From Sneathiellales bacterium (GTDB lineage Bacteria; Pseudomonadota; Alphaproteobacteria; JANQFL01), in contig JANQFL010000040.1 of the NCBI GenBank assembly GCA_028277845.1, forward strand, positions 1 to 64,000: a stretch of DNA of 64,000 nucleotides, written 5' to 3'. The translations under genes and the position numbers were made by a program. Every line of letters starts with the position of its first letter. The stretch's first letter is position 1. This document shows positions 1,235 through 36,250 of this stretch, in pieces. Under the pieces are notes generated by a model that saw only the letters and a list, made by a program, of their open reading frames with translations, searched no databases and was not told the origin of the DNA.

Positions 1235-1998
1235 GCCTGCTGTCGACCCATAACCTGACCCGGCAGTTCGGCGGCGTCGCCGCCGTCAAGGGCGTCAGCA
1301 TGGCCGTCGAGCCCGGCGACATCTTCGCCATCATCGGCACCAACGGCGCCGGCAAGACGACGCTGATCAACGTCATCTCCGGCGTCTTCCCGCCGAGCTC
1401 CGGTACCGTCGGCTTCAAGGGCGCCGACATCACCGGCCTCGGCGCCGACCGGGTCGCCGGCCGGGGTCTGGCGCGCACGTTTCAGAACATCGAGCTGTTC
1501 GAGCATGCCAGCGTGCTCGACAATCTGCTGCTGGGCCGCTACCGGCACCGGCGCGCGACCCTGGCCGAGGAACTGCTGTTCCTGCCCCGCGCGCGCAAGG
1601 AGGCCCTGGCATTTCGTGAATCCGTCGAGGAAGTCATCGAGTATCTCGAACTGGAGCAATGGCGCGACAGCACGGTGTCGAACTTGCCCTACGGCATCCG
1701 TAAGCAGGTGGAACTGGGCCGGGCCCTGGCCTCGGCGCCGGAGCTGCTGATCCTCGATGAGCCGGCCTCGGGCCTGACGCCGGAGGAAACCGCCGATCTC
1801 GCCTACCTGATCCGCGACATGGCGCGCAACCGGGGCATGACCGTTGTCATGATCGAACACGACATGGGTCTGGTCGGCGGCGTCGCCGACCACGTCATGG
1901 CCATGAACAGCGGCGAGGTGATCGCCGAAGGCAGCGCCGCCCATGTGCAGTCCCACCCGGCGGTGCTGGACTGCTATCTCGGCACGCAGGCGGCGTAA
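1231..1998 (+). CDS. livG: Branched-chain amino acid ABC transporter ATP-binding protein
   Basis: Walker A GTNGAGKTT, ABC signature and the LivG-typical long linker. 255 aa. Confidence 0.85.
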   Translation: MSLLSTHNLTRQFGGVAAVKGVSMAVEPGDIFAIIGTNGAGKTTLINVISGVFPPSSGTVGFKGADITGLGADRVAGRGLARTFQNIELFEHASVLDNLLLGRYRHRRATLAEELLFLPRARKEALAFRESVEEVIEYLELEQWRDSTVSNLPYGIRKQVELGRALASAPELLILDEPASGLTPEETADLAYLIRDMARNRGMTVVMIEHDMGLVGGVADHVMAMNSGEVIAEGSAAHVQSHPAVLDCYLGTQAA

Positions 1999-12160: not shown

Positions 12161-12400
12161 ACGTTCGCCGTTATCCTGGACGCACCGTGAACGGGATACC
12201 GTTCGCGGTGCCGCTCACAGTTTGGCCTGCGCCCGGTTCCGGTTCCATTCGCTGAACAGGACGTGGCACCGGACGTTCCGTCGCTTGCACGACAGGCGCC
12301 GCACGGCCGCTCTGCAGTTCGTCGAACTGCCGTTTGCTGTCGGCCAGCAAGTCGTCGAAGGGTGAGAAACGGCCGGATGCCATGACACGGTCTCCTGTAT

Positions 12401-13096
12401 TCAGTTGCCCTGGCTCCACCAGCGTTGGAAGCTCTTGTCGGATTCCGACAGGGCACTCACCTTGAGGGTATCGAGATAGTCCAGTACCTCCTGGCCCGGC
12501 ACCACGTCGGCGTATTTGGCGTCCATGTCGAACAGGTTGGCCTCGTGCGGGCCTTGCGCCCGGTCGCCGACGCCGTCCCGCACGACGATGGTGTTGTAGC
12601 CGTATTGCAGCGAATCGACCGCGGACGCGCGAACGCAGCCGCTGGTGGTGCAGCCGGTGATCACCACCGTATCGACACCCTGGGTCTTCAGATAGGTGTC
12701 CAGGTTAGTGCCGAAAAACGAACTCGCGTACTTTTTCGAAACGATGTAGTCGACGCTGCGCGGCGGGATCCGTTCATCGATCAAACACATATCCGATCCG
12801 CGGACCAATACGGCCAGCGACGGCACTTTTTTGATGAACACCCCGGCGTCGCGGAAATCCGGTTCGTATTCGATCGTGGTGAAGGCGACCGGCAATGCGT
12901 GATCATGAAACGCGTCCAGCAATTGCCGTGTGACCGCCAGTTCGGCGCTGAAATCGCCGCCCAGCGGCGACGACGGATCGGTGAATCCCTGAATGAAATC
13001 AACGATGAGCAGGGCCGGCCGCTCGCCGTATCCGGAGCGTTCGGCAAAGCCCTTGCTTTGATAACTCGCCAACGTGTCTTTTTGCCAATCGTTCAT
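12401..13096 (-). CDS. Isochorismatase-family cysteine hydrolase (N-carbamoylsarcosine amidase / biuret hydrolase-like)
   Basis: 231 aa. LLIVDFIQGF...VITGCTTSGCVRASAVD (catalytic Cys in GCxxxxCV context). Strong RBS GGGAGGA upstream. Confidence 0.75.
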   Translation of the reverse strand: MNDWQKDTLASYQSKGFAERSGYGERPALLIVDFIQGFTDPSSPLGGDFSAELAVTRQLLDAFHDHALPVAFTTIEYEPDFRDAGVFIKKVPSLAVLVRGSDMCLIDERIPPRSVDYIVSKKYASSFFGTNLDTYLKTQGVDTVVITGCTTSGCVRASAVDSLQYGYNTIVVRDGVGDRAQGPHEANLFDMDAKYADVVPGQEVLDYLDTLKVSALSESDKSFQRWWSQGN

Positions 13097-13285
13097 GGCG
13101 TGTCCTCCCGTGACCGGTGCATCTGATGGCGAACCTGACAGTAAGTATAGGCCGTGGGACGGATTCGTAAAATGCCGCGTGCCCCGTTGCCATGATCCCG
13201 ACTCGCGTGCAGACTAATGTGCAAAGCAACGACAACGCCGGAACAAGGCCAATCCCGGCGCCAAGAAAACAGGGAGGGTTCAGTC

Positions 13286-14344
13286 ATGAGCAGCGGTTCC
13301 CGTTATGGCCGTGCGCCCTACGGATCGGGCCAGGCACGCAATGTCACCGGCCCCCGGTACCAGCCCCGGCCATTGCTGTCGCCGTCACCGGCCGCCGCAT
13401 CGGTCGCGTCCCGCTCTCGCAGCACGGCCGGCGGCAAGAAGGAAATCCTGTGCGCCTTCGGCATCGACGTCGATGCCGTCGCCGGCTGGCTCGGATCTTA
13501 TGGCGGCGAGGATTCGCCCTGTGATATTTCCCGTGGCCTGTTCGCCGGCGAGGTCGGCACGCCGCGCCTGGTCGATCTGTTCGATCGGTTTCAGATTCCG
13601 ACCACCTGGTTCATCCCAGGCCACTCCATCGAAACCTTCCCGGAGCAAACCAGGATGGTGGTCGATGCCGGCCACGAGATCGGCATGCACGGCTATTCCC
13701 ACGAAAACCCCATCGCCATGACGCCCGAACAGGAAGAGGCGGTGCTGGACAAGTGCATCGACCTGATCGAGCGGGTTTCCGGCCGCAGCCCGACCGGTTA
13801 CGTGGCGCCGTGGTGGGAATTCAGCCCGGTGACCAACGAGCTTTTGCTCAGCAAGGGCATCAAGTACGACCACAGCCTGATGAACGACGACTTCCATCCG
13901 TTCTATGTCCGGGTCGGCGACAGCTGGACGCCGATCGATTACTCCAAACATCCGGACGAATGGATGAAACCGCTGGTGCGCGGCGTGGAAACCGACCTGA
14001 TCGACATTCCCGGCAGTTGGTATCTCGACGACCTGCCGCCGATGATGTTTATCAAGAGCGCGCCCAATTCCTTCGGCTTCGTCAATCCCCACGACATCGA
14101 GGAACTGTGGCGCGACCAGTTCGACTGGGTTTACCGGGAATACGACTACGCCGTCTTCACCATGACCATCCACCCCGACGTATCGGGCCGGCCGCAGGTC
14201 TTGTTGATGCTGGAACGGGTGTTCGAACATATCTCGAGCCACGCCGGCGTGCGCTTCTGCACCTTCGATGAAATCGCCGACGATTTCGCCCGCCGGCATC
14301 CGCGTGACAAGACGGCGCAGGGCGGCGCCGAGGCGGCGGACTAG
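13286..14344 (+). CDS. Polysaccharide deacetylase (NodB-homology) family hydrolase with a roughly 55-aa disordered N-terminal extension
   Basis: NodB motifs CAFGIDVDA and [12 protein letters not shown]-terminus [47 protein letters not shown] is low complexity. RBS AGGGAGG. Confidence 0.65.
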
Positions 14345-14681: not shown

Positions 14682-15728
14682 GTGGATTACGCCGGTCTCA
14701 TTCCTGTCAATGTCGTGACAGGCTTTCTCGGCAGCGGCAAGACGACGTTGTTGCGCCGGCTTCTGGCGGCGCCGTCGCTCAGCGACACCGCCGTCCTGGT
14801 CAACGAGTTCGGCGAGGTCGGTCTCGATCATCATCTGCTGCAGAACGTCACCGAAAGCGCCCTGTTGCTGGACAATGGCTGCGTCTGCTGCGCCATCCGC
14901 GGCGATTTGCAGGATTCGTTGCGGCAGCTGTTTTCCCAGCGCGACCGCGGCGAGGTGCCGCCGTTCCGGCGCGTGGTCATCGAAACCTCGGGCCTGGCCG
15001 ATCCGGTGCCGATCGCCTACACCGTGCTGTCCGAGCCGGTGCTGCAGCATCACTTTCGCCTGGGCGCCGTCGTTACCACGGTCGACGCCGTCAACGGCGC
15101 CGGGCAACTGGCGCGCTTCGAGGAATCGGTCAAACAGGTCGCCGTGGCCGACCGCATCGTCGTGACCAAGGCCGACCTCGCCGATGCGGAAACCGTCGCC
15201 GCGTTACGCCGGGCCATCCGGCGCCTCAACGGTGCCGCGCCGATCATCGATAGCGGCGACGGCGGCTGGTCGCCCGAGCAACTGATCGTTGACGATATCT
15301 ACGATGCCGACGGCAAGGCGCGGGAGGTGGGCCACTGGCTCGCTGCGCAGGGCGAGGGGGCGGGTGCTGAGCATGGCCATACCGACGGTGTCTCGTCCTT
15401 CGCCGTCGTCTTCGATCGACCGCTGGACTGGACCGCTTTCGGCGTCTGGATGACCATGCTGCTCAACCGGCACGGCGATAAGGTGTTGCGAATCAAGGGT
15501 TTGCTCAATGTCTCCGGGATCGCCGAACCGGTGCTGATCAACGGCGTGCAGCACATCGTGCATCCGCCCGTGCACATGGACGGCTGGCCCGACGGCGACA
15601 GGCGCAGCCGCATCGTCTTCATTGTCCGCGGGCTCGAGCAGGCACGCATCGAGGCGTCGCTGAATGTCTTCAACGACATGGTCAATTCGTCTGCGGAAGA
15701 GACGAGCGGGCTAATCCGAGCCGGATGA
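14682..15728 (+). CDS. COG0523 (CobW/HypB/UreG-type) G3E-family GTPase, putative metallochaperone
   Basis: P-loop GFLGSGKTTLL, diagnostic GCVCCA (CxCC) motif, C-terminal CobW-C-like domain. Confidence 0.8.
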   Translation: MDYAGLIPVNVVTGFLGSGKTTLLRRLLAAPSLSDTAVLVNEFGEVGLDHHLLQNVTESALLLDNGCVCCAIRGDLQDSLRQLFSQRDRGEVPPFRRVVIETSGLADPVPIAYTVLSEPVLQHHFRLGAVVTTVDAVNGAGQLARFEESVKQVAVADRIVVTKADLADAETVAALRRAIRRLNGAAPIIDSGDGGWSPEQLIVDDIYDADGKAREVGHWLAAQGEGAGAEHGHTDGVSSFAVVFDRPLDWTAFGVWMTMLLNRHGDKVLRIKGLLNVSGIAEPVLINGVQHIVHPPVHMDGWPDGDRRSRIVFIVRGLEQARIEASLNVFNDMVNSSAEETSGLIRAG

Positions 15729-16241
15729 GCCGGGGCTGACGCGGGGCGGCGGGCGGCGGGTCTGCCAGCCGTCGCGGAAGGCGCGCACCACGTGGTGCAG
15801 CAGGTAAAACAGCACCGCCAGGATGATCAGCAGCACGATGGCGAGCAGCTTTTCGCCGAACCCCGAGCCGATCATCGCCTCTTGGCCCATCAGGTGCAGG
15901 GCCAGCATGGCGACGGCCTGCAGCGTCGCGCCGGCGCAGAAAATAACGGCGATCAGGATCGATATCTGCAATGTATCGAACACCAGGGCGCCGACGTCCA
16001 GGTCCTTGACATGGCGGATCAGGTTGCGCCGGAAGGATTGCCAGTGGGACACCGCGTAGGCCAGCACCCCGACCACCGAGGCGAACCAGAAAATCACATT
16101 GGTGAAGTGGATATTGGGGATGCTGCCGACCAGGAATTTCTCGAACGGGGCGTAAAAATACAGGAAAATCAAAAAGATAATGATTGCGATCAGGATGATC
16201 CAGAATCGCGGCCGCCGCCCGGTGGTGGTTTCTTCTGCCAT
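15711..16241 (-). CDS. Small integral membrane protein (about 4 TM), uncharacterised family; paralog of 29807..30289
   Basis: 176 aa. LIFLYFYAPFE...IFW...HW...ATLQAV..L motif block shared with the second copy. Divergent from hyuA-1. Confidence 0.55.
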   Translation of the reverse strand: MAEETTTGRRPRFWIILIAIIIFLIFLYFYAPFEKFLVGSIPNIHFTNVIFWFASVVGVLAYAVSHWQSFRRNLIRHVKDLDVGALVFDTLQISILIAVIFCAGATLQAVAMLALHLMGQEAMIGSGFGEKLLAIVLLIILAVLFYLLHHVVRAFRDGWQTRRPPPRVSPGSSGSD

Positions 16242-16501: not shown

Positions 16502-18571
16502 ATGTCAGGCCGTCTCGGCATTGACGTCGGAGGCACGTTTACGGACCTCCTGTTGTTCGACGGCAGCACGGGCGCCATGCACCTGCTGAAGACGCCGTCC
16601 ACGTCCGACGACCAGTCCATCGGCATTCACACCGGCATTCGCGACATGGTACGCCGGTCCGGCATCGCGCCCGGACAGATCGATGCGGTGCTGCACGGCA
16701 CCACCGTGCCGACCAACATCGTGCTCGAGGAAAAGGGCGCTAAGGTCGGCCTGCTGGTGACGGAAAACTTCGAGCAGGTGCTGCATCTCGCCCGCTCGCA
16801 GACGCCGGGGCCGCTGGCCGGCTGGATCATCATGGAAAAGCCGGATCCGCTGGCCGATCTGGAATTCACCCGCGGCGTGCGCGAGCGCATGTCGGCCCAC
16901 GGCGACGTCATCACCCCGCTCGACGAGACCAGCGTCACGGCCGCGATCCGCGACCTGCTCGATGCCGGCGTCGAATCGATCACCGTGTCGCTGCTGCATT
17001 CCTACGCCAATCCCGATCACGAGCGCCGCATCAAGGCGATGATCGTCGACATGGATGCCGACATCCCGGTGTCGCTGTCGTCCGACCTGCTGCCCGAGTT
17101 CCGCGAATACGAGCGCACGTTGGTCACCGTGATGAACGCCTATGTGCGCCCCAGCATGCGCCGCTATCTGACCGGCTTCGAGGACAAGCTGAAATCCCTC
17201 GAGGTGACGCCGCACGTCAACATCGTGCGCTCCGACGGCGGGCTGATGAGCGTGCCCAGGGCGTCCGATTCGCCGGTCCACACCATGCTGTCGGGGCCGG
17301 CCGGCGGCGTGTCGGGCGCGGCCTATCTGGCCGGCCTGGCCGGTTATCCCGACGCGCTCGGTTTCGACATGGGCGGCACGTCCACCGACGTCTCGCTGAT
17401 CCAGGACGGCAAACCGACCATTTCGCGCCAGACATCGCTCGGCTACTACCCGATCAAGGTGCCCTCGGTCGAAGTGCACAGCGTCGGCGCCGGCGGCGGC
17501 TCCGTCGCCCACGTGCCGATGACCGGCGCGCTCAGGGTCGGGCCGGAAAGCGCCGGTGCCATGCCGGGCCCGGCCTGCTACGGCCATGGCGGCACGGCGC
17601 CCACGGTGACCGACGCCAACGTGGTGCTCGGCCGCCTGCCGCCGCAGCTTTTGGGCGGCGATATGGTCCTCGACACGGCGGCGGCGGAGGAGGTGATCAC
17701 CACACTCGGCCGCAAGATCGGCCTCGACATGCACGCCGCCGCGGAAGGCATTCTCGACATCGTCAACGAAAACATGTTCGGCGCCCTGCGCCTGGTGTCG
17801 GTGCAGAAGGGATTGGACCCGCGCGACTTCGCCCTCGTCGCCTTCGGCGGCGCCGGGCCGCTGCACGCCAACGCCATGGCGATGCTGGCCGGCTGCTACC
17901 CGGTCATCGTGCCGCCCACGCCCGGCGTGCTGTCGGCGCTGGGCTTCCTCTATTCCGACATCAAGAACGAGTTTGCCCGCACCTTCGCCCGCACCCTCGA
18001 CGAAGCCACGCCCGAGCAGGTCGGTGGCATCCTCGAGGATTTGCGGCGCGACGCGCGCGCCTGGTTGGCCGAGGAAGGCCTGGCCGAGGACCGTCAGACG
18101 CTCGGCTTCCAGGCCGACGTGCGCTATTTCCGCCAGGGCTACGAGCTGTCGCTCGACATCGACCCGGCGGCCATGCGCAACGGCGGCATGGCGGATCTGG
18201 CCGCCCGCTTCGGCGCCGCCCACGAACAGCTTTACGGCTTCAAGCTCGACCAGCCCGTGGAACTGGTCAATCTGCGTGCGGTCGGCAGCGGCCGGGTCGA
18301 CAAGCAGGCGGTGCCGCGCTTCGAGCCGGAGGGCGCCGACGCCGCGACGGCCAAGGCCGGCCAGCACCAGGTCTATTTCAACGGCGCCTTCGTCAATACG
18401 GCGGTGTACGACCGGGCCAAGCTGCGGGCCGGCAACCGTCTCGTCGGCCCCGCCATCGTCACACAGACCGACACCACCACGGTCATCCATCCCGGCCATG
18501 TCGGCGAGGTCGACGCCTATCTGAATATCCTCATCCATCGCGAGGGCGAAGCCCTGGCGGAGCGGCGCTGA
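16502..18571 (+). CDS. hyuA: Hydantoinase/oxoprolinase family A subunit (HyuA / N-methylhydantoinase A-like)
   Basis: LGIDVGGTFTDLLLF start and full-length hydantoinase_A domain architecture. 689 aa. RBS GGGGAGGAAG. Confidence 0.85.
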   Translation: MSGRLGIDVGGTFTDLLLFDGSTGAMHLLKTPSTSDDQSIGIHTGIRDMVRRSGIAPGQIDAVLHGTTVPTNIVLEEKGAKVGLLVTENFEQVLHLARSQTPGPLAGWIIMEKPDPLADLEFTRGVRERMSAHGDVITPLDETSVTAAIRDLLDAGVESITVSLLHSYANPDHERRIKAMIVDMDADIPVSLSSDLLPEFREYERTLVTVMNAYVRPSMRRYLTGFEDKLKSLEVTPHVNIVRSDGGLMSVPRASDSPVHTMLSGPAGGVSGAAYLAGLAGYPDALGFDMGGTSTDVSLIQDGKPTISRQTSLGYYPIKVPSVEVHSVGAGGGSVAHVPMTGALRVGPESAGAMPGPACYGHGGTAPTVTDANVVLGRLPPQLLGGDMVLDTAAAEEVITTLGRKIGLDMHAAAEGILDIVNENMFGALRLVSVQKGLDPRDFALVAFGGAGPLHANAMAMLAGCYPVIVPPTPGVLSALGFLYSDIKNEFARTFARTLDEATPEQVGGILEDLRRDARAWLAEEGLAEDRQTLGFQADVRYFRQGYELSLDIDPAAMRNGGMADLAARFGAAHEQLYGFKLDQPVELVNLRAVGSGRVDKQAVPRFEPEGADAATAKAGQHQVYFNGAFVNTAVYDRAKLRAGNRLVGPAIVTQTDTTTVIHPGHVGEVDAYLNILIHREGEALAERR

Positions 18572-18573
18572 CC

Positions 18574-20868
18574 ATGTCGGAGACCACGACCAGAAAACCG
18601 CTGTCGCTCGACGACCTGCTGGCCGCCAATAAGGACCAGTTCGATCAGCTGTTCTCCCGGCAGATGACCCAGAAACCGCCGCCGGTAGTGCCGGTCAGGG
18701 AAGCGGTGCCCGAGCCCGCCGCCGTGACCGAGCCGTCCGAACCTGCGCCGGCGGAACCGGATGAAGCCGATCACGGCGTCGGCAACGTCAACGCCCACCT
18801 CAACCGGCTCTTCAGCATCGACTGGTCGTCCGAAGTTCTCGAACGCGCCATCGCCGACGACCGCGTGACCGTGCGCTGCCGGCTGACCGTCAGGGACGAG
18901 ACCATTGAAGTAGAAGGCTCGGCGCCCAATCGCGGCGATGCCGACGCGGCCCTGCAACGCGCGGTCGACGATGCGCTGCTGCGCGGCGCCGCGCGTGTGC
19001 TCGGCGAGGAACCGCCCGCCCGGCCCAAGAAGCCCTCGGAGCGCTGGAAGGAACGCGACGCGCCACCGCCGCCGGTGCGCCGTGTCGTCGACGAGCAAGA
19101 GCGGGCCGGCCTCGACATCGTCACCCTGGATCTGATCGAGAACGCGCTGCGCAACGCCCGCCACGAAATGGATGCGGTCTTGTTCCGGTCCGCCATGTCG
19201 CCGGTGATCCGCGAGCAGCACGACGAATTCCCCATGATCACCGATGCCGAGGGGCGTATGATCGTCGGCCAGTTCGGCTCGTACATCTCGGAAATGCTGC
19301 GCCAGCGGGACTTCGACCTGCGGCCGGGCGACGTCATTTTGCAGAGCGATCCCTACAAGTGCGGCGGCGCCATCAGCCACATCAACGACTGGATGGTGCT
19401 GGTGCCGGTGTTTCACCGCGGCGACCTGGTCGGTTTTACCTCCATGTTCGGCCACATGATGGACGTGGGCGGGCCGGTGCCCGGCAGCATGCCGACGGCG
19501 GCGACGTCGATCTTCGGCGAGGGCATGCGCATCCCGCCGATCAAGATCTACGAGGCCGGCCAGCTCAACCAGGGCGCTCTCGACCTGCTCATGAACAACA
19601 CCCGCACGCCGGAGATGAACTACTCCGATCTGATGGCGATCATCGCCGGCTGCAAGGCCGGCGAGAAGCGGGTGATCGAAATCTGCGAACGTTTCGGCGC
19701 GGCTTTGTACCGCCAGGCCTGCGCGGCCCTGCTCGAGCGCACCAACACCGCCATGCGCCAGCTCATCGTCCAGAACCTGCCCGAGGAACCGCAATCCTTC
19801 GAGGATTTCGTCGACGACGACGGCTGCGGCAACGGCCCGTTCGTCATGAAGCTGACCGTGTGGCGCGAAGGCGATCATGCCTATTTCGACTGGACCGGTA
19901 CCTCGGCCCAGGCGCCGGGGCCGGTCAACTTCTACCTGCACGAAGGCATGTTCAAGATGTTCATCGGCGTCTACATGATCATGGTCTTCGATCCCCAGAT
20001 CCTGTTCAACGACGGCTTCTACGACCTGATCCACGTCAACATGCCGAAGGGTTCGTTGATCCATCCGGAGTTTCCCGCCGCACTGGGCTGCCGCACCCAT
20101 GCGCTGGCCCGGCAATTCGACGTACTGGGCGGCGCGCTCGGCCGTCACACGCCGGAAACGGCGACCGCCGCCGGCTACGGCTCCAGCCCCTATTTCCTGT
20201 TTTCCGGCACCGACGAGGCCGGCCGGCCGTTTCAGTTGATGGAAATCCTCTACGGCGGCATTCCCGGCCGGCCCATCGGCGACGGCATGGACGGCCATTC
20301 CTGGTGGCCGCTGTTCGAGAACATTCCGACCGAGTACCTGGAAAGCTTCTATCCCATGGTGATCGAAAGCTATGCCAGCCTGGCCGATACCGGCGGCGCC
20401 GGCAAACACCGCGGCGGCAATGGGATCGAGAAGGTCTACCGGCTGCTGGAGGACGGTATGGTGTCGATCCACGACGACCGCCACCGCACCCAGCCATGGG
20501 GCATTCTCGGCGGCCAGCCCGGCGCCTGTTCGCGGAAATGGCTGCAACGCCGGGACGGCGAGCGCGAAGAGCTGCCTTCGAAGATCGACGGTATCCGGGT
20601 GCGCAAGGGTGATCGCATCGTTTTCCGCACCGCCGGCGGCGGCGGATGGGGCGACCCGTTGGAACGGGATGCCGGCCGCGTACGCAACGATGTCGCCCGG
20701 CGGCTGATGTCGATCGAGAAAGCGCGCGACGACTACGGCGTCGTGCTGATGGCCGATGGCCTGCAACTCGATGTTCGCGCCACGCGCGATTTACGCGCTA
20801 ATATGAAACACAGCAGAAGACCGCTGGAGTTGTTCGAGTACGGTGACCGGCCGGCTACGGCCACGTGA
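18574..20868 (+). CDS. hyuB: Hydantoinase/oxoprolinase family B subunit (HyuB-like) with a roughly 170-aa N-terminal extension
   Basis: Hydantoinase_B core begins near residue 175 (DIVTLDLIENALRNARHEMDAVLF...). ATG 2 nt after the hyuA stop. Extension has GC3-rich coding signal, Pro/Glu-rich. Confidence 0.8.
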   Translation: MSETTTRKPLSLDDLLAANKDQFDQLFSRQMTQKPPPVVPVREAVPEPAAVTEPSEPAPAEPDEADHGVGNVNAHLNRLFSIDWSSEVLERAIADDRVTVRCRLTVRDETIEVEGSAPNRGDADAALQRAVDDALLRGAARVLGEEPPARPKKPSERWKERDAPPPPVRRVVDEQERAGLDIVTLDLIENALRNARHEMDAVLFRSAMSPVIREQHDEFPMITDAEGRMIVGQFGSYISEMLRQRDFDLRPGDVILQSDPYKCGGAISHINDWMVLVPVFHRGDLVGFTSMFGHMMDVGGPVPGSMPTAATSIFGEGMRIPPIKIYEAGQLNQGALDLLMNNTRTPEMNYSDLMAIIAGCKAGEKRVIEICERFGAALYRQACAALLERTNTAMRQLIVQNLPEEPQSFEDFVDDDGCGNGPFVMKLTVWREGDHAYFDWTGTSAQAPGPVNFYLHEGMFKMFIGVYMIMVFDPQILFNDGFYDLIHVNMPKGSLIHPEFPAALGCRTHALARQFDVLGGALGRHTPETATAAGYGSSPYFLFSGTDEAGRPFQLMEILYGGIPGRPIGDGMDGHSWWPLFENIPTEYLESFYPMVIESYASLADTGGAGKHRGGNGIEKVYRLLEDGMVSIHDDRHRTQPWGILGGQPGACSRKWLQRRDGEREELPSKIDGIRVRKGDRIVFRTAGGGGWGDPLERDAGRVRNDVARRLMSIEKARDDYGVVLMADGLQLDVRATRDLRANMKHSRRPLELFEYGDRPATAT

Positions 20869-20945
20869 TGAGTGAAGACCAAGATCCCTGAACGTTCGGG
20901 ATCGTCAGAAACAGGGACGAACGACACAACACGGGTGTTTGGACA

Positions 20946-23762
20946 ATGTTGGAAATCTGGATCGGTGCGATATTCACGGCGATCGTCGTTATCGCCATTT
21001 TCTACATCATCTCAATCTGGGTGTACAAAAGGGCGCCCGCCAACATGGGATTTATCCGAACAGGTTTCCTCGGCACCAAGGTCTGTCTGGGCCGCGGCGC
21101 CATGGTGCTGCCCGTCTTCCACGAAGTCACCTGGATATCGCTTGAGACCATCAAGCTGATTGTCAGCCGCTCGCGCGAACAGGCCATCCTGACGTCCGAC
21201 AAGATCCGCATCGACGTGAACGCGGAGCTCTATTCCCACGTCGGCCGCACGGAAGACGACCTGCTCACCGCCAGCCGCAGCCTGGGTGAAAAGACGTTCG
21301 ACGCCGAGAACGTGCGCAAGCTGCTGGAAGCCAAGGTGGTCAGCGCGCTGCGCAGTTATGCCGCGACCAAGACGCTGAACGAACTGCACGAAAACCGCGA
21401 CGACTTCGCCCAGGTGGTCAAGGACAAGGTCATCGCCAGTTTCCAGGCCAACGGCCTGGTTCTGGAAGAAGTCACCATCGTGTCCCTCGAGCAGACCGGC
21501 AAGGAGTTCTTCAAGGCCGACAACGTGTTTGACGCCGAAGGTCTGAAGATCATCACCGAGATTACCTCCGACGCCCGCCGCAAGGTGCACGACACCGAGA
21601 AGCGCACCACCGTCGCCATCCGCCAGAAGGATCTGGATACGCAGCTCGAACTGCTGGAAATCGAACGCAAGGAAGCCTTCGCCCAGGCGTCGCAGGATAA
21701 GGACGTGGCCAACCAGCAGGCCCTGCAATTGGGCGAGAAGCAGATGTACATGCTCGATCAACGCAAGGCCGTTGAGGAGCGCGAACTGGCCAACGAGGTG
21801 GAACTGGAGCGCTTGCGCACGGAACGCGAGGTCGCCAAGACCGAGGAAAACAAAAAGCGCGAATCGTCCGACATCGAGCGGCAACTCGCCTTGGAGAAGG
21901 AGCAGCGCGACAAGGACATCGCCCTGATCGCCAAGGCCGAGGAAGAGGAACTGGCCAACATCCACCGTAATCTGGCGCTGGAGAAAGCCGAACGGGACCG
22001 CCACATCGAACTGATCGAAAAGGCCAAGCAGGAGGAACTGGCCGAAATCGCCCGCAACCTGGCCCGCGAGCAGGCCGAGAAGGACCGGGAAATCGAACTG
22101 ACCGAGAAGGAACGGGAACGGCAGAAGGCCGAAATCGCCCGCGCCACCGAAGTGTTGAAGGCCGAGGAAGCGGCCCGCGACGCCCGTCACGAAGCTTCGG
22201 AGGAAACCTCTCTGGCCATGCGTCAGCGTGCCCTGGACACCAAGCTGAAGGCGTTGGAGATCGACAAGAACGAAGCCTTCGCCGAGGTTCAGCAGGAAAA
22301 GGACGTGTCCGACGAGAAGGCGCGCATCCTCAGCGAACAGCAGCGCAACATCCTCGATCGCCGCTTGGAGGTCGAGCAGGAGGAAATCGCCAAGGAGCAG
22401 GCCGTCGAGCAGGCGCGCATCAAGAAGGACGCAGCGGTGATCGACGAGGCCAAGTCCCGCGAAGCGGCCGAAGTACGCCGTCAATTGGCGCGCGAGCAGG
22501 AGGAACGCGACCGCGAAATCGCCCTCGTGGCCAAGGCCGAGGAATTGGAGCGGGCCGAGATCCGCCGTCAATTGGCCCGCGAACAGGAAGAGCGGGACCG
22601 TGACATCGCCCTGGTCGCCAAGGAAGAGGAACTGCGCCAGGCCGAGGTGCGCCAGCAACTGACCATCGAATTGGAGGAAAAGGAGCGCGAAATCCGCATC
22701 ATCGCCAAGGAACAGGAGCGGGAAAAAGCGGACATCATGCGGTTCCTGTCCCGGGAGCTGGAGGAGCGCAACCGGGAAATCTCCCTGGTCAACAAGACCC
22801 GTGAACTGGAAGAGGTCGAAACCAAGCGGCTCAAGGTGACCGCCGACAAGGAAAAGGCCGAACACATGGCCGAGTCGGTGCGCAAGGTGGCCGATGCCGA
22901 GCGCGAGAAGGAAATCGAGCGCATCGCCGCCGAGAAGGCCGCCGAGGCCAAGCGTATCGAGGAAGAGGCCCAGGCCGCCATCGCCAGCATGCACATGGTC
23001 AGCCAGGCCGAGGCGCGCAAACAGTCGGCGGCCGAGGAATCCGACGCCACGCTGATCCGGGCCAAGGCCATGAGCGAGGCGCAGAAGATTTCCGCCGAGG
23101 GGATCGAGAAGGAAGCCGCCGCGCGCGGGCGGGCGGAAGCTGAGGTCGAGGCGCTCAGGGTCGAGAACACCCAGCGCATGCTGGAGGCCGAAGCCACCGG
23201 ACTGGAAGCCAAGGCCGACGCTCTCAAGAAGTACAACGAGGCGGCCACGTTCCTCGAGCTGTCGAAACTGCACATCGAAGCCGAACGCGACGTCCACATC
23301 GACCAGGCCAAGGCCATGGGCAACGCGTTGTCCGGTGCCCAGATCCGCATGTACGGCGGCGGCGACGGCACCGTCGACACCATCCGCGACATGTTCACCT
23401 CGGGCTTCTCGCTCGGCGAGGTGCTGGAAGGCGTGGCGCAATCCCTGCCGGAGGGCCTGCGCAGCCGTTTCGCCGCCAACGGTATCCGCGGCATCTTCGG
23501 CAAGCCCTATCGCAGCGGTCAGTTCAAGGAGATGACCGAGCAGTTGAGCCAATTGGTGCGCGACAATCTCGGCACCAGGAAGAAGCGCGAAGTGTCGTTC
23601 GCCAAGGCGCTCGCCTTGCTGGAAGACAAGTCCGGCGGCAACGAGGCCCAGACCCAGGCATTGAACCTGTTGAAGGACGCCAACGAGAACGGCGTCTTCG
23701 ACGAGGTGCCGTTCGAAACCGTCTGGTCGCTGCTGCAGGCCACCGCCAAGGCGGCCGACTGA
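20946..23762 (+). CDS. Flotillin-like SPFH/band-7 protein with a very long repeat-rich coiled-coil (938 aa)
   Basis: N-terminal TM helix plus SPFH domain, then at least 9 tandem 29-residue units of type AEIRRQLAREQEERDRDIALVAKEEELRQ. Flotillin-type C-terminus. Confidence 0.7.
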   Translation: MLEIWIGAIFTAIVVIAIFYIISIWVYKRAPANMGFIRTGFLGTKVCLGRGAMVLPVFHEVTWISLETIKLIVSRSREQAILTSDKIRIDVNAELYSHVGRTEDDLLTASRSLGEKTFDAENVRKLLEAKVVSALRSYAATKTLNELHENRDDFAQVVKDKVIASFQANGLVLEEVTIVSLEQTGKEFFKADNVFDAEGLKIITEITSDARRKVHDTEKRTTVAIRQKDLDTQLELLEIERKEAFAQASQDKDVANQQALQLGEKQMYMLDQRKAVEERELANEVELERLRTEREVAKTEENKKRESSDIERQLALEKEQRDKDIALIAKAEEEELANIHRNLALEKAERDRHIELIEKAKQEELAEIARNLAREQAEKDREIELTEKERERQKAEIARATEVLKAEEAARDARHEASEETSLAMRQRALDTKLKALEIDKNEAFAEVQQEKDVSDEKARILSEQQRNILDRRLEVEQEEIAKEQAVEQARIKKDAAVIDEAKSREAAEVRRQLAREQEERDREIALVAKAEELERAEIRRQLAREQEERDRDIALVAKEEELRQAEVRQQLTIELEEKEREIRIIAKEQEREKADIMRFLSRELEERNREISLVNKTRELEEVETKRLKVTADKEKAEHMAESVRKVADAEREKEIERIAAEKAAEAKRIEEEAQAAIASMHMVSQAEARKQSAAEESDATLIRAKAMSEAQKISAEGIEKEAAARGRAEAEVEALRVENTQRMLEAEATGLEAKADALKKYNEAATFLELSKLHIEAERDVHIDQAKAMGNALSGAQIRMYGGGDGTVDTIRDMFTSGFSLGEVLEGVAQSLPEGLRSRFAANGIRGIFGKPYRSGQFKEMTEQLSQLVRDNLGTRKKREVSFAKALALLEDKSGGNEAQTQALNLLKDANENGVFDEVPFETVWSLLQATAKAAD
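22467..22640 (+). repeat. Near-identical tandem 87-bp (29-codon) repeat pair inside the flotillin-like gene
   Basis: gccgaagtacgccgtcaattggcgcgcgagcaggaggaacgcgaccgcgaaatcgccctcgtggccaaggccgaggaattggagcgg is followed directly by a copy with few substitutions. Older diverged copies lie on both sides. Confidence 0.75.
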
Positions 23763-23800: not shown

Positions 23801-24907
23801 ATGGCCGACTACGACGTCGTTCTGGACCACGTCCATAAGACCTATCCGGGCGGCGTCCGCGCGGTGATCGATTTCAACGCCGAAATCGAACGCGGCGAAT
23901 TCGTCGCCATGCTGGGCCCCTCCGGTTGCGGCAAGACGACCACGTTGCGCATGATCGGTGGCCTTGAGGAAGTCACCGAGGGCAAGATCTACATTGCCGG
24001 CCAGGACGTCACCGATCTGCCGCCGTCGCAGCGCGATACCTCGATGATGTTTCAGAGCTTCGCTCTGTTTCCCCACCGCAACGTGTTCCAGAACGTCGAA
24101 TTCAGCCTCAAGATGAAAGGCATCGACAAGGACGAGCGGGCGCGCCAGGTCTGGGAAATGGTCGAAATGGTGGGCTTGAAGGAACTGGCCATGCGCCGGC
24201 CGCACGATCTCAGCGGCGGCCAGCAGCAGCGCGTCGCCCTGGCGCGGGCTTTGATCAGCCGGCCGACCCTGCTGTTGCTTGACGAACCGCTGGGCGCGTT
24301 GGACTACAGCCTGCGCCAGGCCATGATGATCGAACTCAAGCGCATTCAGCGCGAACTGGGCATCACCTTCATCATGGTCACCCACTCGCAGCAGGAAGCC
24401 ATGGCCATGGCCGACAAGGTGGTGGTGATGAGCGATGCCCTGGTGCAGCAGATCGGCCCGTCACGGGAGATCGCCGAATCGCCGCGCACCCGCTTCGTCG
24501 CCGATTTCATCGGCAACAACAACCTGTTCACCGGCACCATCAAATCGCAAAGCGGCTCGATCGTCTTCGTCGAGGCCAAGGACAGGCTCTACTACGTGCG
24601 CGTGCCCGATTACATCAAGCGCGTGCCGGTCGGCGGGGAGGTGGATTTCTCCGTCCGCGCCGATCTCATGCATACCGGCGAACACCGCAACATGGCCAAC
24701 AGCGTCAAGGGCAGTTACGTCACGACCGAATATCTCGGCACCCTGGAAACCGATGTGTTCGAGATCGCGCCCGGCCATTACGTGCATGTCGAGCAGCACC
24801 GCAAACTGTCCGACCGGGTCTACCAGATGGGCGAGACGGAAACCATCTGCTGGAGCGCCGAGGCCGGCATCCTGCTCGAAAAGGCCGGCGCCCACCTGAC
24901 GCAATAA
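23801..24907 (+). CDS. ABC transporter ATP-binding protein, PotA/spermidine-putrescine type (with C-terminal TOBE-like region)
   Basis: Walker A GPSGCGKTT, LSGGQQQRVALARAL, 368 aa. Convergent with its presumed permease genes. Confidence 0.8.
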   Translation: MADYDVVLDHVHKTYPGGVRAVIDFNAEIERGEFVAMLGPSGCGKTTTLRMIGGLEEVTEGKIYIAGQDVTDLPPSQRDTSMMFQSFALFPHRNVFQNVEFSLKMKGIDKDERARQVWEMVEMVGLKELAMRRPHDLSGGQQQRVALARALISRPTLLLLDEPLGALDYSLRQAMMIELKRIQRELGITFIMVTHSQQEAMAMADKVVVMSDALVQQIGPSREIAESPRTRFVADFIGNNNLFTGTIKSQSGSIVFVEAKDRLYYVRVPDYIKRVPVGGEVDFSVRADLMHTGEHRNMANSVKGSYVTTEYLGTLETDVFEIAPGHYVHVEQHRKLSDRVYQMGETETICWSAEAGILLEKAGAHLTQ

Positions 24908-29806: not shown

Positions 29807-30289
29807 TTATGTTGAAGCGGGCGCGGCCGCCTTGCCGCTGCGGATGATCTTCAGCAGCCAGAAGATAATGCAGAACAGGCCGGTCAGAATGACCAGGGCG
29901 ATGACGGCGGCCAATAGTTTGCCGAAGTCGGCGCCCAGGGTGTAACCGGGCTCGAGCAAATAGGCGCACAGCATCTGTACGGCCTGCAGCGTGGCGCTGG
30001 CGCTCAGCAAAATGGCGGTGAACGTCGAGCCGCGCAGCGAACTCAACACCATGGCCTCGACATTGTGCTGTTCCAGAATGTGCAGCCGGTAGGCGCGCCA
30101 GTGAAACACGCAGAAACCGACGATGCCGATGATCAGCCCGGCCCAGAAAATGGCGTTGTCGTAGCCCAGGCCGTAGACGACGAGGTTGAACAGGTCCTCG
30201 AACGGCTTGTAAAAATACAGGAAAATCAGAACGATAATGAAAACGATAAACCCGACGAGGGTCCAAAACCACTGCCACCCGGTCATCTT
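29807..30289 (-). CDS. Small integral membrane protein, paralog of 15711..16241
   Basis: Shares the LIFLYFYKPFE / IFW / HW / ATLQAVQML / DFGKLLA motif blocks. Start taken at ATG 30289 (MTGWQWFW). The track ORF extends to a TTG at 30352. Confidence 0.5.
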   Translation of the reverse strand, partial: KMTGWQWFWTLVGFIVFIIVLIFLYFYKPFEDLFNLVVYGLGYDNAIFWAGLIIGIVGFCVFHWRAYRLHILEQHNVEAMVLSSLRGSTFTAILLSASATLQAVQMLCAYLLEPGYTLGADFGKLLAAVIALVILTGLFCIIFWLLKIIRSGKAAAPAST

Positions 30290-30374
30290 CTCTGCGTCCC
30301 TCGTCGTTGTTGCAAGCCGGTTCCCTGTTCCGGCACGGAGACTTCGAGACAAAGTCTATCCTAGCCGCCAGCCG

Positions 30375-31811
30375 TCAGGCAACCGGCGGCGTTTTCGGTA
30401 AGTCCCCGGGCGTTTGCGTGTGCCATGAGGTTGCGGTTTCGTAGGCCGCCGCCGCTGCCAGCAGTTCCGGCTCCTCGAACCAGCGGCCGATCAACTGCAG
30501 TCCGACGGGCAGGCCTTCGCCGGTCAGTCCGCACGGCACACTGATGGCCGGCTGTCCGGTGAACGATGCCAACCGGCATGGCCGGCCCAGAACGGCGGCG
30601 GCATCGATGTCTTCTCCGTTCTGACGGTAACAGCCGGTGTCGATCAACGGCGCCGGTCCGGACGCCGTCGGTACGGCCAGGACATCGACCGACGTCATGA
30701 CGTCGGCCATGGCCTGCTTGATATCCGCCTGACGGCATTGCGCCAGTTGGTAATCGGCGGCGGCAATGTCCTTGCCCTGCAACAGCCGTGCCTCGACTTC
30801 GGGTCCCATGACGCCCGGATGCTCGGCCACCCGGTCGGCATGCACGGCATAGGCTTCGGATAGGGCCATCACCGTCCAGCTTTCCAGCGCGTCGTCGGCG
30901 AACGGGAGGGCGATGGGGCGCACCTCCGCGCCCAGCCCGGCGAGTTCATCGATGGCGGTGCGGATGGCGGCTTCGATATCGGGGTGCGGGCCGTCGAAAA
31001 AGAAATTGTCCGGCACGCCGATGATGCGGCCGCGCAGGCCGTCGCCGATGTGCTCGCTATAGTCTCGCACGCGGACGCCGTGCGTGGTCGGATCCGCGCC
31101 GTCTTCTCCGGCGATCGCCTGCAGCACCAGTGCCGCGTCCCGCACGGTCCGGGCCAGCGGGCCGCCGTGATCGAAACTGTCGCACAACGGGAAGATTCCC
31201 CGGCGGCTGACCAGGCCGTAGCTCTGCTTCAATCCGACCACGCCGCACAGCGCCGCCGGAATGCGGATCGAGCCGCCGGTGTCCGTGCCCAGTGCCGCCG
31301 GCACCAGCGACGCCGCGACGGCGCACCCGGACCCGGCGCTGGAGCCGCCGCAGCCGCGTTCCCGGTCCCACGGATTGCGGGCCGAGCCGAAATGCGGATT
31401 GATGCCCGTCGGGCCGTAGGCGAATTCGTTGAGGTTGAGCAATCCGACGACGATGGCGCCGGCGTCCTTCAATTTGCCGACGGTCGCGGCGTCCTGCGGG
31501 TCGGCCTCCTCGGTGAACAGTTTCGAACCGCAGGTGCGGCGCATGCCGGCGACGGCATAGAGGTCCTTCACCGCCACCGGCACGCCGTGCAACGGGCTCC
31601 GCCGGCGCCCGGCCCGGATCTCCGTCTCCGCCACACGGGCGGCGGCCAGGGCCTGGTCGGGATAGACCGAGAGGAAGGCGTTGAGGACCGGGTTCAGCGC
31701 CTCGATGCGGTCGAGCGTCGCCCGCATCACCTCGACCGGCGAGACCGCGTCGGTGTCCAGAAGGTCACTCAGTTCGGCAATGGTCAGGCGGGCGAGATCC
31801 GTCCCGCTCAC
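30375..31811 (-). CDS. Amidase-signature (AS) family amidase
   Basis: GGSSAGSGCAVAASLVPAALGTDTGGSIRIPAA signature. GTG start at 31811 overlaps the TGA of the upstream membrane-protein gene (GTGA). The 798-aa track ORF is a 5' read-through. Confidence 0.8.
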   Translation of the reverse strand: MSGTDLARLTIAELSDLLDTDAVSPVEVMRATLDRIEALNPVLNAFLSVYPDQALAAARVAETEIRAGRRRSPLHGVPVAVKDLYAVAGMRRTCGSKLFTEEADPQDAATVGKLKDAGAIVVGLLNLNEFAYGPTGINPHFGSARNPWDRERGCGGSSAGSGCAVAASLVPAALGTDTGGSIRIPAALCGVVGLKQSYGLVSRRGIFPLCDSFDHGGPLARTVRDAALVLQAIAGEDGADPTTHGVRVRDYSEHIGDGLRGRIIGVPDNFFFDGPHPDIEAAIRTAIDELAGLGAEVRPIALPFADDALESWTVMALSEAYAVHADRVAEHPGVMGPEVEARLLQGKDIAAADYQLAQCRQADIKQAMADVMTSVDVLAVPTASGPAPLIDTGCYRQNGEDIDAAAVLGRPCRLASFTGQPAISVPCGLTGEGLPVGLQLIGRWFEEPELLAAAAAYETATSWHTQTPGDLPKTPPVA

Positions 31812-32923
31812 GCCGCCGCCTCGGGGATCGCCGCGATCAGCAGGATGCCGTAGATGATGAGGAACAGGACATCCTTGGCCAGGGGGATGCCCTGGCTTTG
31901 CGATTCGCGGGTGATGATCAGGCTGATGACTTCGAGCACGAAAAAGACGACGGCGAGGCCGAAGAAGGGCCAGATGGTGCTCCACCAGGAAATAGCGGCC
32001 GGTACCTCGACGCCCTGCACCGTGCGCCAGATCAGCAGCAGGATGGGCAGGGCGATCAGGTAGGCGTAGGCGATCAGGAAGCGCAGCCGCGTCAGCTTGC
32101 GGTCGATAATCCAGAACAGCAACAGAAACGCGGTGACGTGGATGAAATCCCAGAACAGGGCCGCATAGGTGTCGCCGCCGCCCGACTGCAGCAGGTTGAG
32201 GTAGCCGATGACGTAGAGAAACACCAGCGCGTCGCAGAACAGCCACTCGCGCAGGCTCTCGCCCGGCGTTTTCACGTTCCAGGTGCGTGAGGCCTTGTCG
32301 AACAGCATGACCAGGGCGACGATCAGGCCCGCCGGGTAGATCAGGTTGCTGATCAGCACGTATTGCTGGGCGTTGGGCACGTACGACCAGTTGAGGATGA
32401 GAAAGGCCAGTCCGAGGCCGAGCAGGCCGATCAGCCGCACCGCCGACGGCGATTCGTAGCGCGCCACCGGGGCGGTTTCCGTCGGTTCCGCGGTTTCGGC
32501 CGGCGCCTCCTCGGCGATGGCGGCGGTCGTTGCGGCCGCCGCGGCGGCCAGGTCCCGGTTCAGCCGCGCCTGGCGCCAGAAGACGGTCAGCAGGAACACC
32601 AGCAGCCCGGCGGCGGCGATCAGGCCCATGACGATGATGAAGGTCAGCGAGCGGCCGTCGGTCTGCCATTCGGCCGGGGCGAGGCCGGGCAGCGTGCCCG
32701 GCGGGAACTGCCAGAACAGCAGCACGACGGCGATGACGATCACCGCGCCGGCCAGCAGGAACGCGTACCACTGGGGCGCGTATCCGTCCGCCGCCTGGCC
32801 GTCCGTCCCGGCCGCTTGCGGCCGCCGGGCGTAGCGCGAGATGAGGAAAATCAGGAACGACAGCACGCCGATCACGGCGATGGCGATCATGACTTCGAGA
32901 AAGGCGACGGATCGATTGTCCAA
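31808..32923 (-). CDS. Polytopic integral membrane protein of unknown function (371 aa), translationally coupled to the amidase
   Basis: About 9-10 hydrophobic segments. N-terminal LSFLIFLISRYARRP resembles the LIFLYFY segment of the small membrane paralogs. Ala/Thr/Glu-rich loop in the middle. Confidence 0.55.
   Translation of the reverse strand: MDNRSVAFLEVMIAIAVIGVLSFLIFLISRYARRPQAAGTDGQAADGYAPQWYAFLLAGAVIVIAVVLLFWQFPPGTLPGLAPAEWQTDGRSLTFIIVMGLIAAAGLLVFLLTVFWRQARLNRDLAAAAAATTAAIAEEAPAETAEPTETAPVARYESPSAVRLIGLLGLGLAFLILNWSYVPNAQQYVLISNLIYPAGLIVALVMLFDKASRTWNVKTPGESLREWLFCDALVFLYVIGYLNLLQSGGGDTYAALFWDFIHVTAFLLLFWIIDRKLTRLRFLIAYAYLIALPILLLIWRTVQGVEVPAAISWWSTIWPFFGLAVVFFVLEVISLIITRESQSQGIPLAKDVLFLIIYGILLIAAIPEAAA

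Positions 32924-33796: not shown

Positions 33797-36250
<2,454 letters not shown>

Follow-up and report, generated by a model that had tools for sequence, protein, structure and literature searches.

Clients have been defined for few bacterial members of the SPFH superfamily (e.g. FtsH for HflK/C), and most of their physiological roles are unclear. The HflK/C assembly faces the periplasm, and we know of no enzyme cargo for flotillin. The wall of the solved flotillin structure is a single-layer, right-handed, non-heptad barrel, 22 nm high and made of charge-paired 186-residue helices (PMC11260169), and an NfeD/YqiJ-type operon partner beside the SPFH gene is common, not universal (PMC13086221). 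Here, a 64,000-nucleotide (nt) stretch of DNA from a Sneathiellales bacterium (positions 1 to 64,000 of contig JANQFL010000040.1, assembly GCA_028277845.1; hereafter the window) was analysed around a gene at 20946..23762 on the + strand that encodes a giant SPFH/flotillin-like protein. The open reading frame (ORF) starts with ATG and specifies 938 amino acids (aa) plus a stop codon. The superfamily itself is already known; what is new is the architecture of this protein, the quantised variation of its repeats, the loss of the NfeD partner, and an invariant association with a predicted enzyme operon. With moderate confidence, we propose that this specialised YqiK-type SPFH flotillin acts as a membrane scaffold dedicated to a conserved, membrane-associated catabolic module, most likely in the form of a cytoplasm-facing, membrane-anchored cage. 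The module members that best fit the data are the hydantoinase-type enzyme HyuAB, the ATPase of an ATP-binding cassette (ABC) transporter, and a small membrane protein.

The protein matches the Pfam Band_7 family (PF01145) over aa 47–181 (E = 9e-14, 52 bits against a cut-off of 23.6) and aligns with Escherichia coli YqiK (553 aa) at 35% identity over aa 5–411 (417 columns, E = 1e-62). The FloT equivalog model NF058507 was not reached, with 34.5 bits against a cut-off of 700. The homology to YqiK and this low score together categorize the protein as flotillin-type without being an ordinary FloT/YqiK, in agreement with a first-pass annotation of the same DNA that had called it an abnormally long flotillin/YqiK-type SPFH protein. 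A hydrophobic helix, EIWIGAIFTAIVVIAIFYIISIWVY, followed by KR, was read from the translation at the N-terminus (aa 3–27; 20952..21026, +). This segment is kept in 69 related loci and corresponds to a helix at aa 2–29 in the predicted model, and the positive-inside rule predicts that it is an N-out, C-in membrane anchor. The SPFH (Band 7) domain region (aa 31–215; 21036..21590, +) is the best-conserved part of the protein, with 81% mean identity to homologs. It is followed by a long helical region whose distal part (aa 624–795; 22815..23330, +) aligns to the distal helix of YqiK, and then by a highly conserved segment, SGAQIRMYGGG...LPEGLR...GIRGIFG (aa 796–858; 23331..23519, +; 79% mean identity), which is a candidate roof or oligomerisation element by analogy with the flotillin C-terminus (PMC11260169). 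The last region, a C-terminal helical domain without a YqiK counterpart (aa 859–938; 23520..23759, +), is the least conserved (51%), yet it is modelled with a predicted local distance difference test (pLDDT) of ~82–88. No Pfam family was found for this domain even at E up to 10 (noise only), and a Foldseek search of the PDB with a separate model of aa 745–938 gave no match with E below 1.

The full-length protein was modelled as a monomer with AlphaFold2 from a 47-sequence alignment. The model shows the SPFH fold, a single unbroken helix spanning aa 222–795 (574 residues), and small C-terminal helices at pLDDT ~80. Foldseek against the PDB gave the human flotillin cage as top match (9bq2, E = 1.7e-10), with further matches to prohibitin, stomatin, HflK/C, major vault protein, erlin, and QmcA-YbbJ, including the entries 7wi3, 9cz2, and 8z5g of the HflK/C-FtsH and QmcA-YbbJ group. 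Save for a few isolated SPFH-domain entries, these matches are cage subunits. A sequence search of the PDB gave just a marginal match to the Band 7 domain of flotillin-2 (E = 0.16). Glu, Arg, Lys, and Asp make up 45% of the helix at aa 222–795 (Glu being 21%), and its hydrophobic periodicity falls at harmonics of 29, namely 14.5, 3.63, and 2.9 residues.

The strongest self-offset of the protein is 29 residues, which bears out the non-heptad period reported earlier. Tandem Repeats Finder (TRF) identified 87-bp arrays at 21916..22110 and 22476..22717, and a profile made from the units detects seven of them at 25–38 bits each, arranged as 3 + 4 in two separate arrays ~112 aa apart, where the first-pass annotation had counted at least nine in tandem. 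One degenerate remnant, visible by eye only, follows each array. Array A (aa 309–395; 21870..22130, +; also in TRF) consists of three units scoring 28, 37, and 26 bits, the commonest arrangement of this array among 120 homologs, and array B (aa 508–623; 22467..22814, +; also in TRF) consists of four units scoring 28–38 bits and is variable in copy number. Each unit repeats a hydrophobic cluster (I..QLA and IALVA), giving the 3.63-residue harmonic. Both arrays sit within a ~200-aa post-SPFH module that is itself duplicated: helical module A, the first copy, covers aa 215–414 (21588..22187, +), and helical module B, the second, covers aa 415–640 (22188..22865, +). The duplication is gapless between aa 215–399 and aa 415–599, with 46% identity (E = 7e-57), and both copies align to YqiK residues 233 to ~420. 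YqiK ends opposite ~aa 807, and the final ~130 aa of the giant protein are additional. The extra length is therefore due to the duplicated module, the unit arrays within it, and the C-terminal extension, so that the repeats, to which all of it had been ascribed, contribute a part. An antisense open frame of 846 aa over the same DNA (21012..23552, −) was taken as a by-product of G+C-rich, GAG/GCC-rich repeat coding and not as a gene.

The closest pair of units (B1 at 22467..22553 and B2 at 22554..22640) had been described as almost identical in DNA. The two share 78% DNA identity (19 of 87 positions differ) and 83% protein identity, which excludes a recent duplication. The B2 unit of this lineage is about equally similar to the B1 and the B2 units of other species, making an old gene conversion possible, if unproven. 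A representative search returned 118 sequences of 480 aa or longer, five of them members or fragments of the giant family. The unit profile found no match in 110 of these or in E. coli YqiK; by this profile, the 29-residue unit is specific to the giant clade.

The region bounded by reference residues 480 and 650 measures 112, 141, 170, 199, 228, or 257 aa in 119 of the 120 homologs. Its length, which reflects array B, is thus 170 + n × 29 aa with n from −2 to +3, and the array ranges from 2 to 7 units; array A mostly has 3. The closest database homolog (P0002, 910 aa) differs from the protein of the window by one unit, and a neighbour-joining tree of the 120 homologs, constructed from the non-repeat parts, requires at least 19 independent changes in unit number. 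As aligned here, array length varies between lineages by whole units each time, and nothing points to ongoing change in this genome. The earlier suggestion of an expanding or contracting array thus stands for the divergence between lineages, and the recent change it assumed in this genome does not.

These 120 homologs are the best matches in a library clustered at 90% identity; all are 879–1023 aa long and 58–100% identical, and none carries an annotation more specific than 'uncharacterized membrane protein YqiK' or 'SPFH domain-containing protein'. Clustering of the library at 50% left the family with a single full-length representative and some fragments. Outside the family, the nearest relatives are at most 40% identical and 420–745 aa long, with a median of ~620 aa. 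Judged by these comparisons, the giant SPFH family is a discrete, strongly constrained clade, and with at least 120 clusters at 90% identity in marine and other metagenomes it is widespread. Its named members are from Alphaproteobacteria, Rhodospirillaceae, Amylibacter, Burkholderiaceae/Burkholderiales, and a gammaproteobacterial metagenome-assembled genome (MAG), and the related loci described below come from alpha-, beta-, and gammaproteobacterial MAGs as well as many metagenome contigs, with a locus G+C content of 49–70%.

The neighbours of the gene in the window were compared by tblastn with 86 related loci obtained from genome and metagenome scans and contig look-ups. The denominators given here are the loci with enough flank to score the neighbour in question. 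HyuB-1, a hydantoinase B-type subunit (764 aa; 18574..20868, +; assigned by Pfam, catalytic domain at aa 181–695), is encoded directly upstream of the SPFH gene and on the same strand, an arrangement found in 71/71 loci. HyuA-1, a hydantoinase/oxoprolinase A-type subunit (689 aa; 16502..18571, +; Pfam Hydant_A_N, Hydantoinase_A, and Hydant_A_C), is encoded further upstream, as it is in 50/50 loci. The two subunits resemble those of caprolactamase (HyuA-1 being caprolactamase-alpha-like), with scores below the cut-offs. A PotA-like ABC-transporter ATPase (368 aa; 23801..24907, +) is encoded 38 nt downstream of the SPFH gene, and its gene occupies this directly downstream position in 73/75 loci. 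Divergent from hyuA-1, a gene for a membrane protein of 176 aa with four transmembrane (TM) segments in its translation (orf176; 15711..16241, −) holds the same place in 43/44 loci. The tie to hydantoinase-like genes that had been drawn from the window is thus reproduced across the related loci. The first-pass annotation had named orthologs of common length that are never linked to hyu genes as an outcome that would count against its reading. Orthologs do commonly have the same length, 938 aa being modal, and the absence of linkage is decisively contradicted by the counts above.

The linkage also holds in loci that depart from the common order. Two loci (L007 and L008) carry an OMPdecase gene between HyuA and HyuB, and the ATPase gene there lies at a distance of 7.6 kb or does not occur within the 10-kb flank. 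The altered stretch with the OMP-decarboxylase-family gene was seen at 7445..10000 in L007 and 7527..10000 in L008, which are on large contigs (4.7 and 7.0 Mb) and have SPFH proteins of 1023 and 965 aa, respectively; the spacer between HyuB and the SPFH gene is 308–390 nt in these loci and extremely structured (minimum free energies of −134 and −174 kcal/mol), suggesting an inserted repeat element. In a soil-type locus (L060, 10501..18484), the SPFH gene is followed by an orphan ATPase gene, near which neither a permease nor a binding protein is encoded, and the genes that follow it on the other strand encode NiFe-hydrogenase-like and Fe-S proteins. In four others (L002, L082, L086, and L087), the HyuAB at the conserved position is just 38–43% identical to HyuAB-1, the SPFH protein is 53–73% and the ATPase 70–77% identical, and the HyuB peptide described below is retained. 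These identities suggest that in the four loci a paralog bearing the peptide, whether retained or newly gained, has displaced the HyuAB. That the linkage persists while flanks change and HyuAB diverges to ~40% supports a coupling between HyuB and the SPFH protein.

For comparison, the three closest ordinary flotillins that were looked up (600–632 aa) have a gene for a TM and OB-fold, NfeD-like protein directly upstream and no HyuAB. These upstream genes (L091, 4100..4969; L092, 4108..4773; L093, 4225..4932) encode TM segments, an acidic or His-rich linker, and a C-terminal OB-like segment (…VRDxxGxxHRV…); they are NfeD/YqiJ-like by architecture, with no Pfam match on record. At the sensitivity of BLAST, tblastn searches with YqiJ and YbbJ gave no credible NfeD/YqiJ match in the window or in the 86 loci. 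The membrane protein orf176 was considered as a YqiJ/NfeD analogue and rejected, as it has no similarity to YqiJ; it also matched no Pfam family (E up to 10, noise only). A paralog of orf176 (~180 aa, four TM segments, 35% identity, E = 7e-29) is encoded at 29807..30352 on the − strand of the window, and eleven related loci have a second orf176-type copy downstream of the SPFH gene, at a distance of 4.7–7.0 kb. The two paralogs with four TM segments are possible membrane receptors for tagged enzymes.

The HyuB-1 and SPFH genes of the window are separated by a 77-nt spacer, and this spacer is 40–108 nt in 66/69 loci. The spacer and the same-strand position had been described correctly, as had a GATCCC-N9-GGGATC hairpin within it (20883..20903, +). 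The meaning given to the hairpin does not survive: its fold is no better than that of shuffles (z = 0.35), it has no T-run, and it is not conserved in the 69 related spacers, so it was rejected as a terminator. Outside coding sequence, no terminator-like site was found on the + strand between hyuA and potA, and from 15.5 to 25.2 kb promoter-like sites occur in the divergent orf176/hyuA region only. The short spacers, the lack of terminator signals, and the lack of further promoter-like sites make it likely that hyuA-hyuB-SPFH-ATPase form an operon with hyuA as its first gene.

The catalytic domain of HyuB-1 is preceded by a 180-aa N-terminal extension, in which a short peptide is joined by a Pro-rich linker to a domain of ~75 aa that is followed by another linker. 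The peptide, LSLDDLLAANKDQFDQLF (aa 10–27; 18601..18654, +), is followed by the Pro-rich linker and belongs to a family with the consensus SLDDLLxANKxQFDxLF, succeeded by a flexible linker. It is present in 60/60 full-length HyuBs linked to an SPFH gene, four of which have a catalytic part with just ~41–43% identity, and the peptide is therefore better conserved than its enzyme. The 'peptide tag' first noticed in the window is accordingly a shared feature of the linked enzymes. It is a candidate docking or targeting element, and the likely docking element of the scaffold proposed below. Within aa 1–181 (18574..19116, +), the folded-looking segment of ~75 aa (aa ~66–145) has no Pfam match, and no known domain was found in the extension as a whole (Pfam, E up to 10, noise only). 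A possible resemblance of the small domain to Rad52 found no support. In many homologs the peptide is followed by a second motif, GLvGxSHRPxTxxDLxSASL, which a Pro-rich stretch replaces in the copy of the window.

When a loose form of the peptide pattern was run against all six frames of the window, three places only were returned: HyuB-1, HyuA-2, and a 70-aa ORF. HyuA-2 (817 aa; 33797..36250, +) has an N-terminal peptide, WFDSQLDDMKNEFDRL, then a ~120-aa Pro/Ala-rich linker, with the first domain beginning at aa 138. The peptide is conserved in two related loci (L002 and L006), and no known domain was found in the extension (Pfam, E up to 10, noise only). Its partner HyuB-2 (637 aa; 36266..38179, +) is without an N-terminal extension, so each HyuAB pair seems to carry one tag, on different subunits. 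The 70-aa ORF (12171..12383, −) comes right after an isochorismatase gene (12401..13096, −). It starts with a tag-like peptide, PFDDLLADSKRQFDEL, from which a Pro-rich linker leads to a short tail, and in L006 the same place is taken by a counterpart of 68 aa (1497..1703, −). The ORF may encode a tag-bearing adaptor for the isochorismatase-family enzyme. We treat the HyuA-2 and 70-aa ORF peptides as a lead only.

The position of the SPFH gene between a tagged HyuB and a transporter ATPase across these loci makes a dedicated scaffold or cage probable, and the following arrangement is proposed. The SPFH gene would be co-transcribed with hyuA-hyuB upstream and the ABC-transporter ATPase gene downstream. 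The N-terminal helix would anchor the protein in the inner membrane with the SPFH domain on the cytoplasmic face, and the charged, non-heptad helices of ~574 residues would pack side by side with their neighbours, as in the flotillin wall. The helix would have been lengthened by duplication of a ~200-aa wall module and by the addition of 29-residue units. As 29 residues at 3.63 residues per turn correspond to ~8 turns, or ~4.35 nm, changes by whole units would alter the length and keep the helix face. The HyuB peptide and its flexible linker would hold the ATP-dependent HyuAB-type enzyme at or inside the assembly and would thereby place HyuAB beside the ABC importer, with a putative metabolic benefit. 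A bolder form of this proposal, which we consider doubtful, is a tall, membrane-capped cytoplasmic SPFH cage that would serve as an enzyme compartment over the ABC importer, with HyuAB and perhaps other tagged proteins recruited by the peptide and with its size set in 29-residue (~4.35 nm) quanta. In such a compartment, imported substrate would meet the ATP-dependent hydrolase in a confined space.

The SPFH protein might instead mainly serve the ABC transporter, corralling or regulating the importer, with HyuAB linked merely as the consumer of the imported substrate. The PotA-like ATPase keeps its place directly downstream with 72–80% identity, two permeases and a binding protein follow the ATPase on the opposite strand in the marine-type loci (the window included), and solved SPFH cages do enclose membrane proteins, as HflK/C encloses FtsH, and stomatin regulates channels. 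Such a role leaves the conserved HyuB peptide unexplained, however, and is at odds with L007 and L008, where HyuA-HyuB-SPFH is kept and the ATPase gene is displaced or missing, and with L060, where the ATPase has no permease or binding-protein gene. We therefore regard it as unlikely to be the main role, and it is compatible with the scaffold proposal rather than exclusive of it.

The charge content of the long helix invites another explanation, that of a single-alpha-helix (ER/K-type) ruler or spacer graduated in 4.35-nm steps, which would hold the C-terminal part off the membrane and act as a tether and not as a compartment. One uninterrupted predicted helix, 45% E/R/K/D (E 21%), and exact 29-residue length quanta are what such a ruler would display. 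However, the hydrophobic cluster recurs with a periodicity of 3.63 residues, which suggests that the helices pack laterally, the wall of the solved flotillin structure has as much charge and is likewise non-heptad, and the SPFH relatives of solved structure among the top fold matches all form closed oligomers. We consider a free-standing ruler quite unlikely. Finally, it is very unlikely that a general microdomain flotillin without specific coupling has simply ridden a horizontally mobile catabolic island and inherited its gene order, because, even if the whole block (deacetylase, CobW, membrane protein, HyuAB, SPFH, ATPase) is shared across classes with high identity in the manner of a mobile cassette, the HyuB-SPFH adjacency and the HyuB peptide stay constant through changes of flanks, OMPdecase insertions, and a change of HyuAB paralog, the SPFH protein is strongly constrained (56–78% identity; SPFH domain 81%), and the NfeD partner, retained by ordinary relatives, has been lost from the clade.

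Several points weigh against the dedicated scaffold itself. We infer the link of the SPFH protein to HyuAB, the peptide, and the transporter from comparisons of sequence, and many of the 86 loci are related to one another and are not 86 independent observations. The full-length model is a monomer of low confidence (mean pLDDT 62; predicted template modelling score, pTM, 0.26) and is silent on a cage. A 574-residue wall would be three times as long as that of flotillin and may not close into the known cone geometry. The peptide could bind the conserved protein orf176, with its four TM segments, instead of the SPFH protein. The count of 60/60 covers HyuBs linked to the SPFH gene, and a database search with a 44-column profile of the tag gave only 29 short, truncated HyuB N-termini. 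By the profile of the HyuB tag, the further peptides in the window are weak (E = 0.22 for HyuA-2; the 70-aa ORF undetected).

The remaining neighbours in the window are less constant. A CobW-type GTPase gene (14682..15728, +) and, further upstream, a gene for a polysaccharide-deacetylase-family protein (13217..14344, +) precede the module; the former was found in 32/38 loci, being frequent and not invariant, and the latter in 25/36, a count partly limited by flank length. No known domain was found in the N-terminus of the deacetylase (Pfam, E up to 10, noise only). An amidase ORF (30375..32771, −) has a 345-aa Arg/Pro/Ala-rich N-terminal stretch ahead of its Amidase domain, which most likely arises from a start codon placed too far upstream in high-G+C DNA and does not represent a true extension. 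Isochorismatase-family and amidohydrolase genes are also present, which we take to recall the N-methylhydantoin branch of creatinine breakdown. A role in anti-phage defence was considered and rejected: PADLOC gave no match for the SPFH protein, orf176, or HyuB, and the matches of the ATPase reflect generic ABC similarity.

The SPFH protein and the tagged HyuB constitute a directly testable client-scaffold pair, and the array B series of 2 to 7 units is a natural length series for relating helix length to the geometry of SPFH assemblies. If a cage with cargo is indeed formed, bacteria would have, in addition to encapsulins and microcompartments, a third kind of protein compartment, one built from an SPFH protein, and HyuAB would be the first defined soluble-enzyme client of a flotillin. 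In the literature search, no paper was found that joins SPFH proteins or flotillins with hydantoinase, or that describes peptide-targeted cargo for a bacterial SPFH protein.

Compared with described systems, the giant protein has the general features of the SPFH superfamily, with a domain recognised by profile and by fold, an N-terminal anchor, and a long C-terminal helical region. With YqiK/FloT it has in common the N-terminal membrane helix, the SPFH domain, and the long charged helical region, and it falls outside the ordinary length of ~500–700 aa and the single module of that type. YqiK reaches 553 aa with one helical module and is without the 29-residue arrays and the ~130-aa C-terminal region, whereas the giant protein reaches 938 aa with a duplicated post-SPFH module. 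Unlike its YqiK-type relatives, the giant clade has no detected NfeD/YqiJ-type partner gene, and unlike that of YqiK, its gene lies within a predicted, invariant operon with HyuAB and the ABC ATPase. The human flotillin-1/2 cage (9bq2) shares non-heptad, charge-rich wall helices and a conserved C-terminal segment, but its wall helix is 186 residues long against a predicted 574, and flotillin is lipid-anchored and hetero-oligomeric, whereas the giant protein has a predicted transmembrane helix and is encoded by a single gene. HflK/C-FtsH and QmcA-YbbJ are likewise cases in which a particular partner is genetically linked with an SPFH protein. The partners of HflK/C and QmcA are membrane proteins (the FtsH protease and NfeD, respectively), while the invariant neighbours here encode an ATP-dependent hydantoinase-type enzyme, which is soluble, and an ABC ATPase, and the giant protein, unlike HflK/C, is predicted to face the cytoplasm. 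Major vault protein, with its SPFH-like shoulder, is among the fold matches. An ER/K single alpha-helix is very rich in E/K/R and has no recurrent hydrophobic seam; the giant helix is 45% charged, but in it a hydrophobic cluster recurs every 29 residues with a 3.63-residue harmonic. No encapsulin or bacterial microcompartment (BMC) domain was found in the Pfam scans, which covered the neighbouring genes and not the whole window. The likeness to these compartments is one of form only, an enzyme with a short conserved terminal peptide and a disordered linker: encapsulin and BMC shells have the HK97 or BMC fold, whereas the candidate shell here is an SPFH protein and would be open to the membrane on one side.

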